Assembly (NCBI GenBank): GCA_016193395.1
Contig: JACPSH010000015.1
Location: 37,858 to 101,857, forward strand
Length of the DNA: 64,000 nt
Direction: 5' to 3'
From: Gammaproteobacteria bacterium
GTDB taxonomy: Bacteria > Pseudomonadota > Gammaproteobacteria > Eutrophobiales > Eutrophobiaceae
The notes beneath the pieces are model-generated. The model saw only the letters and a list, made by a program, of their open reading frames with translations, did no database searches and had not been told where the DNA came from. A program made the translations under genes and the position numbers. Shown one piece after another: positions 40,510 to 46,518 of this stretch. The stretch's first letter is position 1. Each line of letters opens with the position of its first letter.

Positions 40510-41151
40510 TTGGAGATCGGCGTGCGGCCCGGAATCCTGTTCATCGTCTCCGCCCCTTCTGGCGCGGGCAAGACCACCCTGGTGCACGGCCTGGTCAAAC
40601 GCGACCCGAACGTAGTGCTGTCCATATCGCACACGACGCGCCGCCAGCGCCCAGGGGAAGTCAACGGCGTGCATTACCATTTCATCGACGATGCGGCCTT
40701 TGGGAAGATGGTGGAAAAGCAGGCGTTCCTCGAACATGCGCCCGTCTTTGACCACCAGTACGGCACGTCGAAGCACTGGGTCGAGGCCCGGCTCGCTGAA
40801 GGCCGTGACGTCATCCTGGAAATCGACTGGCAGGGCGCCCGGCAGGTCCGTTCCCGGGGCGCGGACCCGATCTCGATCTTCGTCCTGCCGCCCTCCCTGC
40901 ACATCCTCGAACAGAGGCTGCGGACGCGCGGAGAAGACGACACGGTTGTGGCGCGCAGGATGCGCGACGCCATCAGCGAGATATCCCATTACGCCGAATA
41001 CGATTTCCTGGTGGTCAACGATGCGGTGGACCGGGCCCTGCTCGATCTGGGCCAGATCATGGACGCCGCCCGTCACTGTTACCGGCCGCTGCGGCTGCAC
41101 TTTGACGCCGCCGTCGCCGAACTCTTGCGTGATGCCGGAGACATCCGTTAA
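40510..41151 (+). CDS. gmk: Guanylate kinase
   Basis: ILFIVSAPSGAGKTTL is the P-loop. The motifs ...SISHTTRRQRPGEVNGVHYHF... are characteristic of Gmk. Confidence 0.9.
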   Translation: MEIGVRPGILFIVSAPSGAGKTTLVHGLVKRDPNVVLSISHTTRRQRPGEVNGVHYHFIDDAAFGKMVEKQAFLEHAPVFDHQYGTSKHWVEARLAEGRDVILEIDWQGARQVRSRGADPISIFVLPPSLHILEQRLRTRGEDDTVVARRMRDAISEISHYAEYDFLVVNDAVDRALLDLGQIMDAARHCYRPLRLHFDAAVAELLRDAGDIR

Positions 41152-41232
41152 ACTCGCCGGCCGCCAAACGCCCGGACCGCGTGGCCCCCGTGGCCGCGGC
41201 CGGCAAACCGCAACGCACAAGGTGAACACAGC

Positions 41233-41487
41233 ATGGCCCGTCTGACCGTCGAAGATTGCCTGAAGTACATTCCCAACCGATACGACCTCGTGCTGCTGGC
41301 CAGCAAGCGCGCGCGCCAGCTCGCGCTTGGCGCGGACCCGATGGTCAGTGAAGACGGCGATAAGCCCGGCGTCATCGCCTTGCGCGAGATCGCCGAAGGA
41401 CTGGTCAGGCTCGACAACATCGACTCGATCGCCCGCACGCCGACCGAAGAGGAACTGGCGGAACTGGAGTTCCGCGCCGCCGAGTAG
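41233..41487 (+). CDS. rpoZ: DNA-directed RNA polymerase subunit omega
   Basis: [30 protein letters not shown] matches RpoZ almost along its whole length. Confidence 0.9.
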
Positions 41488-41579
41488 CACCGCCGCGCCC
41501 GGCCCCGGCGCGTTTCCCCCGATTGCCCGCTTCCCGCCTGCCCCGGCAGGTGCGGCGTGCGTGCGTTAGAATTAGTCTC

Positions 41580-43700
41580 ATGAGCGCGACGATCTCCGAT
41601 CTGGAACGCCAGGTCAGCGCCTACCTTCAGCCGGACGAGGTTGAGAAGGTGTTGCGCGCCTACGATTTCGGCGCCAAGGCCCACGAAGGCCAGCACCGGG
41701 TCAGCGGCGAGCCGTACATCCACCATCCGCTGGAAGTGGCGCAGATCCTGGCGGGCATGCACATGGATCACCAGACCCTGATCGCGGCGATCCTGCACGA
41801 TGTCATCGAAGACACCGAGACTGCGAAGCTCGAGATCCAGCGCAAATTCGGCAAGGGCGTCGCGGACCTCGTCGACGGCGTCAGCAAGCTGACCCAAATC
41901 AAGTTCGACTCGCACGCAGAGGCGCAGGCGCAGAACTTCCGCAAGATGCTCATGGCCATGAGCAACGACATCCGCGTGATCCTGGTCAAGCTCGCGGACC
42001 GCGTGCACAACATGCGTACGCTGCGGGCGCTCCCCTCGGAAAAACGGCGGCGCATCGCCCGCGAGACGCTGGAAATCTACGCGCCCATCGCGCAGCGCCT
42101 CGGGATCAATTCGATCCGGCTCGAGCTCGAGGAGCTCGGCTTCGCCACGCTCTATCCGATGCGCTACCGCGTCCTGTCCGAGGAGGTCAGAAAGGCCCGT
42201 GGGCACCGCAAGGAGATCGTCAACCGCATCCGCACCGCCCTCAAGCGGCGGCTGCGGCAGGATAAGGTGCACGCGCAGGTCATCGGGCGCGAGAAGCACC
42301 TGTACGGCATTTATCAGAAGATGATCAGCAAGCGACTGTCCTTCGCCGAGGTGTACGACGTCTACGCGTTCCGCATCATCGTCGACAACGTCGATACCTG
42401 CTACCGCGCCGTGGGCACGGTGCACAACCTGTACAAGCCCGTGCCCGGCAAGTTCAAGGATTACATCGCCATTCCCAAGTCGAACGGCTACCAGGCGCTG
42501 CATACCGTGCTGTTCGGCCCGTTTGGAGTTCCCATCGAGGTCCAGATCCGCAGCCGCGACATGAACGATGTCGCCGAGGCCGGGATCGCCGCTCACTGGC
42601 TGTACAAGTCGGGAAGCGCCAGTGAGCGCAGCGGCGCTCACAAGCGGGCGCGTGAGTGGCTGCGCAGCATCATGGAAATGCAGACCACCGCCGGCAACCC
42701 GCAGGAATTCCTGGAGAACGTGAAAATCGACCTGTTCCCCGAATCCGTCTACGTCTTCACGCCGAAGGGAAAGATCATCGAGTTGCCGCGCAATGCCACC
42801 GCGGTGGATTTCGCGTATGCAATCCACACGGACGTCGGCAACGGCTGCGTGGGCGCGCGCATCAACCGCCGCCTCGCCCCCTTGGGCACGCGGCTTGCGA
42901 CCGGGCAAACAGTCGAGATCGTGACCGCCCCGGGCGCGCATCCCAATCCGGCGTGGCTGAATTTCGCCGTCACCGCCAAGGCCCGGTCCAACATCCGGCA
43001 CTACCTCAAGCACCTGCAGCAAAGGGAGGCCGCGGCGCTCGGCAAGCGGCTGCTGAACCGCGAGTTGCAGATGCACTCGACGGCCTACGACGAGGTGGAT
43101 CGGGACCAGCTGCGCAGGGTGCTCGAGGAATACCATCTCAAGGGCGAGGAAGAGCTGCTGCAGGACGTGGGGCTCGGGAACCGCATGGCGCCGATCATCG
43201 CGCGGCAGCTCCTCGGGCAATGGACCGCGGTCCCGCATGCGAAACCGAACGGAGGGGACGCACAGCCCCTGCTGATTAAGGGTACCGAAGGGCTCGTGAT
43301 TAACTTTCCGAAATGCTGCCGTCCCATTCCCGGCGATCCGATCCTCGGTTTCATGACCGCCGGCCGTGGCATTGTGGTGCACCACCAGTCCTGCCCGAAC
43401 GTCCGCGAATACCGCAATCATCCGGACAAGTGGGTCAACGTCGAATGGGAATCGGATATCCAGGGCAGCTTCCCGACCAACATCCGCCTAGACGTCACCA
43501 ACCAGCGCGGTGTACTGGCGAAGATCGCCGCCGAGATCGCGGACCAGGAGGCGAACATCGTCAACGTGGAGATGCAGGATCGTGACGACCGGTACACGAC
43601 CCTCAAGTTCACGATCGAGGTCCAGGATAGGCAGCACCTCGCCCGCGTCATGCGCCGCATACGCGGGCTCAAGCACGTCTCGCGGATCTCGCGCAGGTAG
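41580..43700 (+). CDS. spoT: Bifunctional (p)ppGpp synthetase/hydrolase (RelA/SpoT homologue)
   Basis: The HD hydrolase domain (HPLEVAQILAGMHMD, ILHDVIEDT) and the synthetase domain (YQALHTVLFGPFGVPIEVQIRS) are present. The TGS and ACT C-terminal regions are also present. The gmk-rpoZ-spoT order matches E. coli. Confidence 0.9.
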   Translation: MSATISDLERQVSAYLQPDEVEKVLRAYDFGAKAHEGQHRVSGEPYIHHPLEVAQILAGMHMDHQTLIAAILHDVIEDTETAKLEIQRKFGKGVADLVDGVSKLTQIKFDSHAEAQAQNFRKMLMAMSNDIRVILVKLADRVHNMRTLRALPSEKRRRIARETLEIYAPIAQRLGINSIRLELEELGFATLYPMRYRVLSEEVRKARGHRKEIVNRIRTALKRRLRQDKVHAQVIGREKHLYGIYQKMISKRLSFAEVYDVYAFRIIVDNVDTCYRAVGTVHNLYKPVPGKFKDYIAIPKSNGYQALHTVLFGPFGVPIEVQIRSRDMNDVAEAGIAAHWLYKSGSASERSGAHKRAREWLRSIMEMQTTAGNPQEFLENVKIDLFPESVYVFTPKGKIIELPRNATAVDFAYAIHTDVGNGCVGARINRRLAPLGTRLATGQTVEIVTAPGAHPNPAWLNFAVTAKARSNIRHYLKHLQQREAAALGKRLLNRELQMHSTAYDEVDRDQLRRVLEEYHLKGEEELLQDVGLGNRMAPIIARQLLGQWTAVPHAKPNGGDAQPLLIKGTEGLVINFPKCCRPIPGDPILGFMTAGRGIVVHHQSCPNVREYRNHPDKWVNVEWESDIQGSFPTNIRLDVTNQRGVLAKIAAEIADQEANIVNVEMQDRDDRYTTLKFTIEVQDRQHLARVMRRIRGLKHVSRISRR

Positions 43701-43709
43701 TCGCGCCCG

Positions 43710-43983
43710 GCAGACAATTGCTCCTGCGATTTCTGCATTTCCGCCATCCCTGGCGGTCATCCCTGGCGGCCATCCCGGGCGGTCATCCCGGGCGGTCGCA
43801 GAAAATTGCTCCTGCATTTTCTGCATTTCCGCCGTCCCTGGCGGTCATCCCGGGCGGTCATCCCTGGCGGTCATCCCGGGCGGTCGCAGAAAATTGCTCC
43901 TGCATTTTCTGCATTCCCGCCATCCCTGGCGGTCGCAGAAAATTGCTCCTGCATTTTCTGCATTCCCGCCATCCCTGGCGGTC
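43710..43983 (+). repeat. Nested tandem-repeat array: four 36-bp units, each followed by 4, 4, 1 and 1 copies of a 13-bp sub-repeat
   Basis: The 36-mer is GCAGA(A/C)AATTGCTCCTGC(G/A)TTTTCTGCATT(T/C)CCGCC. The 13-mer is ATCCC(T/G)GGCGG(T/C)C. The units start at 43710, 43798, 43886 and 43935. The 36-mer contains a 9-bp-stem hairpin, GCAGAAAAT/ATTTTCTGC. The array fills the gap between the spoT stop (43700) and the ridA core. Confidence 0.9.
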
Positions 43984-44363
43984 GGAAAATCATCTCGACC
44001 GACGCGGCGCCCCACGCGATCGGGACCTACTCGCAGGCGGTCCAGGTCGGCAATACCGTTTACCTCTCCGGGCAGATCCCGCTCGACCCCGCGACCATGC
44101 GACTCGTCACCGGCGATGTGCGCGGCCAGATCGACCAGGTATTCCGGAACCTCGCCGCGTTGGCTGGAGCCGCGGGCGGCAGCCTGGCGGATGTCGTCAA
44201 GCTGAATGTCTACCTCACCGATCTCGAATATTTCCCGCTGGTCAATGAGGTCATGGAGCAATACTTCCGGAAGCCCTATCCGGCACGCGCCGCGGTCGGC
44301 GTCGCCGAATTGCCGAAAGGGGCACTGGTCGAGATCGAAGGCATCCTGATGCTGGAGTCCTGA
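43806..44363 (+). CDS. ridA: RidA (YjgF/TdcF) family reactive-intermediate deaminase. The 5' end and start codon are uncertain because the gene abuts a tandem-repeat array.
   Basis: The conserved core [35 protein letters not shown]...[17 protein letters not shown] starts at ~43986. No ATG, GTG or TTG codon occurs at the expected position. The only in-frame upstream start-like codon (TTG at 43806) lies inside the repeat array. Confidence 0.65.
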
Positions 44364-44424
44364 CGGAGTGACGCGGTCCTGAGCACGGCATTTCTGGTAG
44401 GCGTCCCGCGCCGGGGATAGGCCA

Positions 44425-46518
44425 TTGCCCCGGGCCAGGCCACTGTCCGCGCCCACGCGCGATCTGCCCGGCGTCGGACCCAAGATCGAAGACCTGTTGA
44501 AACGCATTGGCATTCACTGCCTGCGCGACCTCTTGTTCCACCTCCCCTACCGCTACGCGGACCGCACGCGCCTGCTGCCGATCGGGGCGCTGCAATCCGG
44601 CGTCGAAGCGCTGACCCAGGGACGGGTGGAACTGTGCCAAGTGCGCTATCCCGGCCGCCGCTCGCTCCTGTGTCGAATCAGCGACGGCACCGGCGCATTG
44701 ACCCTGCGGTTCTTCCACTTCAATCGCGCGCAGGAAGCTCAGCTGCAGCGAGGCGCGCTCATTCGCTGTTATGGGTTGGCGCGCCGTTCCGCAACCACCG
44801 TGGAAATGATCCACCCTGAATACCAGAAGCTGAACGCGGAGCAACCGGCCCCGCTCGAACAGACGCTCACGCCGGTCTATCCCGCGACGGAGGGCCTGAG
44901 CCAGGGCCGGTTACGCAGGTTGACCACGGAAGCGCTGGCGGCCATGCGCTCCGATGCCGGGGGCCTGGAAGAGATCATTCCGGCAAGCCTGCTTCGCGAT
45001 CTGGGGATGCCGCTGCTGCGCGAGGCGCTGGAATACGTCCACCGTCCGCCGCCGGATGCCGATACCGCCCTGATGATGCAGGGAAGGCATCCCTGCCAGC
45101 AGCGGCTCGCCTTCGAGGAACTGCTCGCCCACATCCTGAGCCTGCGCGTGCTGCGATCCGAAGTCCGCGCGCAGAACGCGCCGCCGCTCAATCCGCCGGA
45201 CAACCGCCTGAGCGAAGCGATGATCGGCGCGCTGCCATTCGCATTAACCCTGGCCCAGCAGAGGGTCATGGCGCAGGTGCGCGCCGATCTCTCGGGAAAC
45301 AGGCCGATGATGAGGCTGTTGCAGGGAGACGTTGGATCCGGGAAAACCGTCGTGGCCGCATTCGCGGCGGTGCAGGCCGTAGCGTCCGGTTACCAGGTCG
45401 CGTTCATGGCGCCGACCGAACTGCTCGCCGGGCAGCATTTCCTGAACCTGGGACAATGGCTGTCTGCGCTGGAAATCGAGGTCATCCTGATGTCGGCCCA
45501 GTCCCGCGGCAGCGGGCGCGGCGAATGCCTGGCCCGCATGCGCGACGGGGCGCCGCTCGTCGCGGTCGGCACGCATGCCCTGTTCCAGGAACAGGTGAAA
45601 TTCGGGCGGCTGGGCCTCGTCATCATCGACGAACAGCACCGCTTCGGCGTGCATCAGCGCCTTGCGCTGCTCCGTAAAGGGGAGTCGGGCGAATCATTCC
45701 CCCACCAGCTGATCATGACGGCGACCCCCATTCCGCGCACGCTGGCCATGACGCTGTTCGCGGACCTGGATCTCTCGGTCATCGACGAGCTTCCCCCGGG
45801 GCGGCAGTCGGTACGGACCGTGGTGGTGTCCAATGTCCGCCGTGGCGAGGTGATCGATCGCGTTGCCGAGGCGTGCCGCGCAGGACGGCAGGTGTACTGG
45901 GTATGTCCGCTGATTGCGGAATCGGAGGTCCTGCAATGCCAGGCGGCGATCGAAACGCGCGCAGCCCTGCAGGAACAGTTTCCTCACCTGTCCATCGGCC
46001 TGCTCCACGGACGATTGCAGGCGCGCGAGAAAGAACGCGGGATGCAGCAGTTCCGTTCCGGCGCGCAGGATATTCTGGTGGCCACGACGGTAATCGAGGT
46101 TGGAGTGGACGTCCCGAACGCGAGCCTCATGGTCATCGAAAACGCCGAGCGGCTCGGCCTTGCGCAGCTGCATCAGTTGCGCGGACGGGTCGGACGCGGA
46201 CGAGCGAAGAGCGATTGCGTGTTGCTCTACCAGCCCCCGTTGTCCGGCTCGGCTCGGGCGCGCATGGAAACGATGCGTAGGACCACGGACGGTTTTGCGA
46301 TTGCCGAGAAGGATTTGCAGTTGCGCGGCGCCGGCGAACTCCTGGGCGCGCGTCAGACCGGGCTGCAAGGGATGCGCATTGCCAGTTTCGAGCGCGATGC
46401 CCGGATGATTCCGCGGGCGCGAAAGGTTGCGGACGCGCTGGTCGAGCGGCACCCGCAGGCCGTCGAACCGCTGGTGCGCCGCTGGGTGATGACCGAAGCC
46501 GGGATCGGTTCCGTCTGA
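44425..46518 (+). CDS. recG: ATP-dependent DNA helicase RecG
   Basis: The wedge domain, the helicase motifs (LLQGDVGSGKTVVA, DEQHRFG) and the C-terminal region match RecG. The spoT-(ridA)-recG order is conserved. Confidence 0.9.
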   Translation: MPRARPLSAPTRDLPGVGPKIEDLLKRIGIHCLRDLLFHLPYRYADRTRLLPIGALQSGVEALTQGRVELCQVRYPGRRSLLCRISDGTGALTLRFFHFNRAQEAQLQRGALIRCYGLARRSATTVEMIHPEYQKLNAEQPAPLEQTLTPVYPATEGLSQGRLRRLTTEALAAMRSDAGGLEEIIPASLLRDLGMPLLREALEYVHRPPPDADTALMMQGRHPCQQRLAFEELLAHILSLRVLRSEVRAQNAPPLNPPDNRLSEAMIGALPFALTLAQQRVMAQVRADLSGNRPMMRLLQGDVGSGKTVVAAFAAVQAVASGYQVAFMAPTELLAGQHFLNLGQWLSALEIEVILMSAQSRGSGRGECLARMRDGAPLVAVGTHALFQEQVKFGRLGLVIIDEQHRFGVHQRLALLRKGESGESFPHQLIMTATPIPRTLAMTLFADLDLSVIDELPPGRQSVRTVVVSNVRRGEVIDRVAEACRAGRQVYWVCPLIAESEVLQCQAAIETRAALQEQFPHLSIGLLHGRLQAREKERGMQQFRSGAQDILVATTVIEVGVDVPNASLMVIENAERLGLAQLHQLRGRVGRGRAKSDCVLLYQPPLSGSARARMETMRRTTDGFAIAEKDLQLRGAGELLGARQTGLQGMRIASFERDARMIPRARKVADALVERHPQAVEPLVRRWVMTEAGIGSV

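Follow-up and report, generated by a model that had tools for sequence, protein, structure and literature searches.

The spoT-ridA-recG region of a gammaproteobacterial metagenome-assembled genome (MAG) raises the question of how, or whether, a ridA gene can be expressed when no start codon stands at its head. The gene was found in a 64,000-nt stretch of one contig (referred to here as the window), in the conserved order gmk-rpoZ-spoT-ridA-recG with recG downstream, and it follows a nested tandem array that fills most of the space behind spoT (Table 1). Read from the ATG, spoT encodes 706 aa (a TTG at 41523 is an alternative start), the same length as calls in relatives, with an identical product on Logan contig L091 and a 706-aa gene also in the relative represented by L085; the 697-aa RecG product has identical copies on Logan contigs L089 and L090. 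The remnant of ridA belongs by profile to the Rid family (RidA/YjgF/TdcF, 2-iminobutanoate/2-iminopropanoate deaminase): TIGR00004 gives 163.9 bits (cut-off 106.25) over model positions 2-124 of 125, PF01042 gives 131.9 bits (cut-off 27.3), and solved RidA-family structures match with E = 1.9e-50. The PAR arginine motif and the C-terminal strand are intact (YPARAAVGV...VEIEG, aligned with structures 3r0p and 3k0t), and the arginine of this motif corresponds to Arg105, an active-site residue of E. coli RidA. No second Rid paralogue was found in the 64-kb window.

Table 1. Features of the spoT-ridA-recG region in the window, with the evidence used to place each of them
Feature	Coordinates	Strand	Basis
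spoT, bifunctional (p)ppGpp synthetase/hydrolase	41580..43700	+	Pfam HD_4, RelA_SpoT, TGS, ACT
Nested tandem array	43710..43983	+	Repeat units, folding, covariance model R1
Start codon ATC as annotated at NCBI	43971..43973	+	MBI2993444.1; inside hairpin 2 of last repeat unit
Deletion junction	43983..43984	+	Alignment A1; BLAST of L001-L004 and L089 against the window
ridA remnant, codon 3 (CGG) to TGA stop	43983..44363	+	TIGR00004, PF01042, identity to P0001
ATC-ATC, codons 5-6 of native RidA	43989..43994	+	
recG, intact	44425..46518	+	Pfam RecG_wedge, DEAD, Helicase_C

The codons leading into the conserved core read GGT (43980), CGG (43983), AAA (43986), ATC (43989), and ATC (43992). Position 2 of TIGR00004 aligns to residue 61 of the ORF that opens at TTG 43806, which is AAA 43986, so the initiator is expected at CGG 43983 (PF01042 matches from residue 66 of the same ORF). 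The initiator that the family has at model position 1 is thus replaced in the window by CGG, while it is present in the intact allele described below. Between the spoT stop and the RidA core, the sole ATG, GTG, or TTG in the ridA frame is TTG 43806, which lies 177 nt (59 codons) upstream of the core within the loop of the second repeat head. A first-pass annotation had described the same situation, namely a core beginning at about 43983 with GGT-CGG in place of any ATG, GTG, or TTG, and a TTG 177 nt upstream inside the array that would add an extension of about 59 aa if used; its sequence statements, coordinates, and reading frame were all borne out. Three explanations had been put forward there: that the array overran the native start and left ridA silent or a pseudogene, that translation begins at a rare codon such as ATC, or that a repeat-encoded N-terminal extension is made.

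A search for homologues returned a protein of 128 aa (P0001; MTRKIIS...) that is 100% identical to the window product from residue 3 on, such that the window gene retains residues 3-128 of that protein, unchanged in every amino acid. The gene for P0001 lies on Logan contigs assembled from five SRA runs (SRR12113385, SRR12113390, SRR12113401, SRR12113425, and SRR12113428), and these contigs match the window at 99.94-99.97% identity, gap-free over ~10.6 kb, on both sides of the array. All of the contigs carrying P0001 begin 28 nt inside the array and then continue ...CCCTGGCGGTC AGGCCCGTTGTCAGTAGCCCGACCGCCCGCGATAATTACACCCCGCC ATG ACC CGG AAA ATC..., giving an intact allele that can be written ...GGCGGTC-[54 nt]-GGAAAATC. 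The 54 nt absent from the window at 43983 are AGGCCCGTTGTCAGTAGCCCGACCGCCCGCGATAATTACACCCCGCCATGACCC (L001 29-82; alignment A1 and BLAST); both the difference and its content can be read directly from the aligned contigs, and it is the single structural difference between the Logan contigs and the window. The deletion begins exactly where the last 49-nt unit of the array ends, after ...CCCTGGCGGTC, and runs through ridA codon 2, with a microhomology of 1 nt (C) at its breakpoints. A misplaced segment was considered and rejected, the 54 nt being absent from the rest of the window. The alleles are told apart by the string CCCTGGCGGTCGGAAAATCATC for the deletion and by GGCGGTCAGGCCCG, CATGACCCGGAAAATC, GGCGGTC-AGGCCCG, and CATGACC-CGGAAAATC for the intact form. 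Look-ups with RecG, SpoT, and UbiA returned runs from the same five only, with the ATG allele in all. An ATG at the expected position had been named in advance as the observation that would speak against a startless ridA, and at species level it is there, as ATG ACC CGG AAA ATC in five independent metagenome assemblies. The missing start is real in this sequence and is not a trait of the gene or of the species.

Comparison with more distant loci indicates which allele came first. The codon at aligned residue 1 is ATG, GTG, or TTG in 76 of 84 related loci, and in the remaining eight an ATG lies within -5 to +1 codons of that residue; set against these 84 relatives, the window is the only locus without a canonical start near the homologous position. 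In 62 of the 84 loci, the gene immediately preceding ridA is spoT. The first-pass annotation had also called for a comparison with an orthologous locus free of the array, and the next relative, P0002 (87% identity; loci L085-L088), supplies it: the array is absent there, and 20 nt separate the spoT stop from a canonical ATG. The 20-nt spacer of L085 aligns gap-free to the last 20 nt before the ATG of the intact allele, and the sequences place ATAAT equally far from the ATG in both. Because this spacer aligns, and because all 84 relatives have a canonical start, the intact allele is on sequence comparison the ancestral one and the window allele derived from it by deletion.

The explanation that we consider probable is that a recent, real, strain-specific deletion of 54 bp has made ridA a null or strongly hypomorphic allele and that no unusual initiation is involved. 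The lost sequence would have extended from the end of the last 49-nt unit through ridA codon 2, yielding the derived allele; transcription of ridA would then depend solely on read-through from spoT across the strongly folded array, translation would have nothing but a near-cognate ATC to start from, with a yield of around one percent of the normal level, and the event would be too recent for the coding sequence to have decayed further. The near-identical relatives are what a recent null allele leads one to expect, in that they keep the 54 nt with its promoter-like site and ATG. Among the explanations offered by the first-pass annotation, that of an array overrunning the native start comes closest to this: loss of function, or silence, is the part that agrees with it, while the event itself appears to be a 54-bp deletion and not an insertion or expansion of the repeat.

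What was removed would bear directly on expression. Inside the 54 nt lies a promoter-like site, TTGTCA-17 nt-GATAAT, with 10/12 matches (0.1 expected in shuffles), and the segment ends in the ridA codons ATG ACC. Only 11 nt separate GATAAT from the ATG in the intact allele, and this leader shows no Shine-Dalgarno pairing (+0.3 kcal/mol), which suggests that intact ridA has its own sigma-70-type promoter and a nearly leaderless mRNA. The array-free relative has no such promoter-like site and carries a GAGG Shine-Dalgarno sequence instead. In the window, no promoter-like site was found between 43400 and 44600. The window gene is a full-length, high-scoring RidA over residues 3-128, with the PAR motif and the conserved gene neighbourhood kept, but it is without the initiator, codon 2, leader, and promoter-like site of the intact conspecific allele. 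From the absence of both its own promoter and a canonical start we infer a null or strongly hypomorphic allele, from which some RidA could still be made through spoT read-through and near-cognate initiation.

The native leader also carried an in-frame TAG and TAA, and because the deletion removed both, no stop now interrupts the frame between the end of spoT and ridA. This has consequences for two further readings. In one, a 185-aa RidA would start at TTG 43806 with a 59-aa repeat-encoded extension whose length varies with repeat copy number. The TTG is the sole canonical in-frame initiator, has moderate Shine-Dalgarno-like pairing upstream (-6.5 kcal/mol), and some homologues, such as P0098, do have N-terminal extensions. 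This particular extension, however, was found in no homologue in a 5.8-billion-protein set, the exact 185-aa product is likewise not on record, and the frame has been open only since the deletion took the leader's two stops. Moreover, none of the remaining three heads has its copy of this TTG in frame, the TTG at 43806 falls where stem meets loop in the 9-bp hairpin 1 of unit 2, and the intact allele gives a normal 128-aa protein. We regard such a product as very improbable, and the suggestion of a repeat-encoded N-terminus found no support among homologues. In the other reading, read-through of the spoT stop (TAG, 43698-43700) would produce a SpoT-linker-RidA fusion. That stop does share its frame with ridA and no stop lies between, yet no read-through signal and no such fusion among homologues were found, and the shared frame is readily seen as a by-product of removing 54 nt (18 codons) from GC-rich, stop-poor sequence; the chance that a fusion is made seems negligible.

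Initiation at a non-canonical codon deserves closer attention, since a public record already assumes it. Clustered with P0001 at 90% is a single further protein, MBI2993444.1 (P0121; "MAG: RidA family protein [Gammaproteobacteria bacterium]"). It has 130 aa (MPGGRKIIS...), is encoded on a 168,474-nt contig, and is what 43971-44363 yields on translation when its first Ile is given as Met, so the window very probably derives from this MAG. Non-canonical initiators of this kind have precedents in E. coli infC and pcnB, which have AUU initiators, that of infC being conserved and serving autoregulation. The window ORF resembles them in that public annotation gives it an AUH start, but its ATC 43971 lies in a repeat unit, replaces an ATG that the species retains, and is not conserved as a start, the 84 relatives having canonical codons; its anti-Shine-Dalgarno pairing of +2.2 kcal/mol amounts to none. 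On these grounds the ATC start in the NCBI record is to be seen as an annotation rescue and not as biology. More plausible as a site of residual near-cognate initiation, and the most plausible in the region, is the pair ATC 43989/43992, preceded at 6-9 nt by GGCGGT (43977-43982), a weak Shine-Dalgarno-like sequence with a predicted pairing of -5.5 kcal/mol that compares with -5.7 for recG.

It has to be asked whether useful levels of RidA might arise from spoT read-through mRNA by initiation at ATC 43971 (130 aa) or at 43989/43992 (~123-124 aa). In addition to the existing annotation and the recG-like site ahead of 43989/43992, such a reading is aided by the array, which holds no terminator with a real T-run and only two weak consensus matches, and by the observation that in E. 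coli the near-cognate AUC does serve as an initiator (doi 10.1101/063800). Yet AUC initiation in that organism amounts to 1-2% of that from AUG, and the non-canonical starts confirmed there number two only (doi 10.1101/063800). Neither the same species nor any of the 84 relatives uses the codon, ATC 43971 is embedded in hairpin 2 of a repeat unit, and a start at 43989 would cost the protein residues 1-4, the run-up to the first segment that the family profile shows as conserved. Useful expression by this route is accordingly judged improbable, and the idea of a rare start codon raised by the first-pass annotation gains nothing from conservation.

A strain-specific deletion has one serious competitor, an artefact of assembly or curation in which the organism carries the intact allele and 54 nt were lost in contig building or gap closing beside the array. 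The deletion junction is known from one MAG contig only. It abuts a 274-nt nested repeat, a typical site of assembler failure, inside which every Logan contig breaks, and the ATG allele appears in all five runs with the species, on contigs that are unbroken at the junction. The deletion allele was absent from all other assemblies of the protein collection, where the P0001 cluster consists of P0001 and the NCBI protein, and JGI metagenome contigs contained no match to an exact 28-mer taken from the start of the ridA remnant. The perfection of the remaining coding sequence could be expected of an artefact; the undecayed state fits a recent event equally well. Against an artefact stand several points. 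De Bruijn-graph assemblers form contigs only from k-mers present in the reads and, with 1 nt shared between the breakpoints, graph collapse cannot by general assembler knowledge create the junction. The missing part is unique sequence and not copies of the repeat, and, apart from four SNPs, the window and the independent contigs agree in sequence, free of indels, over ~10.6 kb. At four positions (42653, 42689, 44398, and 46170) all covering Logan contigs agree on the base and the window differs, and these fixed SNPs mark the window as a distinct genotype rather than a second consensus of the same reads. In addition, the sequence of L091 breaks off at 43739, a point at which the k=31 graph of the window is unbranched, which points to an array that is structurally polymorphic in the population. 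Weighing these observations, we infer that a real deletion is about twice as probable as an artefact, and the latter is best described as unlikely while still deserving serious consideration.

If the deletion is real, its position hints at how it arose. On its left side the deletion begins precisely where the 49-nt unit has its natural 3' boundary, as defined by unit ends from nine unrelated metagenome loci that share with the window exactly 43886-43934 and nothing more, and the new junction GGTC|GGAAAAT resembles the unit-unit junction GGTC|GCAGAAAAT. An end-flush breakpoint together with a unit-like junction hints at an element-linked event. Simple slippage does not explain the deletion, because the breakpoints share only 1 nt. 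Two specific routes were rejected on reading the sequence: slippage between the direct repeats CCCGCCAT present on both sides would keep the ATG, and recombination at the GAAAAT microhomology would leave GCAG at the junction, unlike what is observed. Adjacent deletions at IS elements and the instability of REP/BIME clusters offer parallels, with a breakpoint at the end of a repeated module, loss of the 5' end of the neighbouring gene, and a polymorphic array. They differ from the present case in that no transposase or RAYT was found near the elements, and neither a target duplication nor a second copy is seen at the right breakpoint.

The array is built from two 88-nt units (43710-43797 and 43798-43885), each made up of a 36-nt head and four copies of the 13-mer ATCCCKGGCGGTC, followed by two identical 49-nt units (43886-43934 and 43935-43983). 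The 49-nt module can be read as hairpin 1 (GCAGAAAAT-TGCTCCTGC-ATTTTCTGC), ATTYC, hairpin 2 (CCGCC-ATCCCT-GGCGG), and a final TC. The repeat head occurs in four copies in the array and nowhere else in the window, and covariance model R1 likewise recovers the four units at 56.9-76.7 bits with no further copy in the window; the array region folds far better than shuffled sequence (z = -6.2). Outside the window, metagenome contigs of 36-67% GC contain the 27-nt head in at least 120 exact copies, in many contexts and in both orientations, and identical copies of the module occur in unrelated genomes across that same range of GC. Hairpin 2 covaries. Across 59 distinct units, 58 cells of hairpin 2 were changed on both sides compared with 20.1 ± 3.0 in shuffled alignments, a value of 58 being reached in 0/500 shuffles and slid controls giving 3-10. 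In diverged copies recovered by the covariance model, the loop TGCTCCTGC is kept on completely different stems and the stems of hairpin 1 are exchanged. Neither the window nor 20 loci bearing the element gave a match to any Rfam family at its gathering score, a literature search gave no match for the repeat sequence nor for the run and protein accessions, and no recurring protein family or transposase was found within the flanks of 120 loci. By these searches the 49-nt module occurs widely in metagenomes and falls into none of the Rfam families. For a 49-nt unit inside a reverse-transcriptase ORF (L111), translational bypass or splicing was also considered and dropped, that ORF being broken elsewhere too.

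Two known systems invite comparison. REP/BIME/REPIN and MITE-like repeats are likewise short hairpin units that are mostly intergenic or placed after terminators, are found in many genomes, and occur in both orientations and in tandem or composite clusters. In REPs, however, it is the stem sequence that is conserved, whereas in the module the loops are conserved and the stems covary; the GTAG head of REP/BIME elements is absent from the canonical 49-nt unit, and identical 49-mers are present across genomes of very different GC. The second comparison is with the regulatory RNAs CsrB, RsmY, and RsmZ. The CsrA-binding motif is a hairpin with GGA in its loop, arranged in pairs (PMC4333381). The conserved loops of the module are UGCUCCUGC and RUCCMU, and their complements, GCAGGAGC and AKGGAY, carry GGA, such that the minus strand of each unit shows two hairpins with GGA loops (GCAGGAGCA and AGGGAU) and the 274-nt array contains ~14 GGA motifs. 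In the sense of spoT and ridA the loops read UCC and not GGA, and the element is dispersed in both orientations, unlike those RNAs. RsmY gave weak matches on the minus strand of the array (13.7 and 12.0 bits, the gathering score being 57), and minus-strand promoter- or terminator-like sites were found neither in window 43400-44600 nor in L089 1-700.

A wider reading can be offered tentatively, as one that we think rather doubtful when taken as a whole: the 49-nt module may be an undescribed, horizontally spreading element that amplifies in tandem, deleted the ridA start flush with its own end, and possibly distributes portable CsrA/RsmA sites. Under such a scheme, the module would first have separated ridA from spoT and would later have joined its 3' end to a pseudo-5'-end, GGAAAAT, inside ridA; modules on the GGA strand could then act as predicted portable CsrA/RsmA-binding sites.

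For ridA itself the finding is an ordinary one, and the repeat module is the more interesting by-product. The ridA result is a caution that an exotic-looking start in a single MAG can prove to be a small deletion allele, and the ATC of MBI2993444.1 should be left out of any tally of naturally used non-canonical start codons. A real deletion would represent a natural RidA-deficient strain in an otherwise uniform groundwater/environmental population and would show the repeat array to be a place where structural change concentrates locally. Of greater use as a lead is the 49-nt module itself, whose two hairpins have conserved loops and covarying stems, whose ends are sharply defined, and which is shared by many unrelated genomes.

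The 49-nt unit of the array between spoT and ridA is a two-hairpin module with sharp boundaries that is common in metagenomes, where its 27-nt head was found in at least 120 exact copies (loci L092-L211) in hosts ranging from 36 to 67% GC. The identical 49-mer occurs in nine loci that share nothing else with the window, and across its copies the stems covary while the loops are conserved. A comparison of the unit with Rfam matched no family, and a literature search found no paper describing it.

Frequently a longer inverted repeat carries the unit at its tip (as in ...GGACTAG-unit-CTAGTCC... and GGAATAG-unit-CTATTCC). The unit is also often immediately preceded by an intrinsic terminator, and often belongs to composite arrays that contain related hairpin modules, in both orientations. 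These settings were seen in the flanks of the unit at L094, L118, L119, L122, L129, L169, L183 and other loci. In three diverged metagenome contigs it lies at an identical position within an ORF for a group II intron-type reverse transcriptase, between ...DLSKFF and RVNHDLLM, and shifts the reading frame. Since the ORF in L111 is broken at other places as well, a decayed copy of the intron is the probable explanation.

Feature coordinates in the window and in metagenome contigs
Feature	Location	Strand	Detail
Candidate starts of spoT	window 41523-41582	plus	TTG 41523, 725 aa; ATG 41580, 706 aa
ORF antisense to spoT	window 41148-43421	minus	757 aa
Array, GGA-loop hairpins	window 43710-43983	minus	GCAGGAGCA and AGGGAU
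49-nt array units	window 43886-43983
ridA frame	window 43698-44363	plus	includes the spoT TAG stop
Second open frame	window 43718 to array end		from TTG
Apparent imperfect direct repeat	window 43690-43709 and L001 39-58		CAGGTAGTCGCGCCCG and CAGTAGCCCGACCGCCCG
Promoter-like site before ridA	within L001/L089 29-82		TTGTCA-17-GATAAT
Comparison for promoter-like site	L085 2981-3000
Unit in reverse-transcriptase ORF	L111 510-558
Unit in reverse-transcriptase ORF	L128 616-664
Unit in reverse-transcriptase ORF	L138 1726-1774

In minus-strand orientation, every unit shows two GGA-loop hairpins and each 13-mer of the array contributes one more GGGAU, so that the 274 nt hold about 14 GGA motifs. In this the strand resembles a CsrA/RsmA sponge, but its matches to RsmY fall far short of the threshold; a minus-strand promoter for the array was sought and none was found.

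The array appears to vary within the species. A Logan contig running from spoT (L091, from SRR12113425) ends at 43739, whereas the window's own k=31 graph is unbranched before 43778, which indicates that in that sample the array either departs from the window's version at 43739/43740 or is polymorphic relative to it.

No stop codon separates the spoT stop from ridA in the ridA frame, which is open across the entire array; a second frame is open from TTG 43718 to the array's end. These open frames are a by-product of the 54-nt deletion and the GC-rich repeats. The start of spoT itself is ambiguous, with TTG 41523 and ATG 41580 as candidates; the ATG lacks Shine-Dalgarno pairing, and the shorter product has the length called in relatives. 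The long ORF antisense to spoT is most likely no gene but a shadow ORF of GC-rich sequence.

The stretches flanking the array resemble imperfect direct copies of the spoT stop region, which may be a trace of array insertion. In the array-bearing species ridA has gained a strong promoter-like site, and it has lost the GAGG Shine-Dalgarno sequence present in the array-free relative (L085). This gain and loss suggest that ridA there, formerly co-transcribed with spoT, has switched to an almost leaderless transcript of its own.
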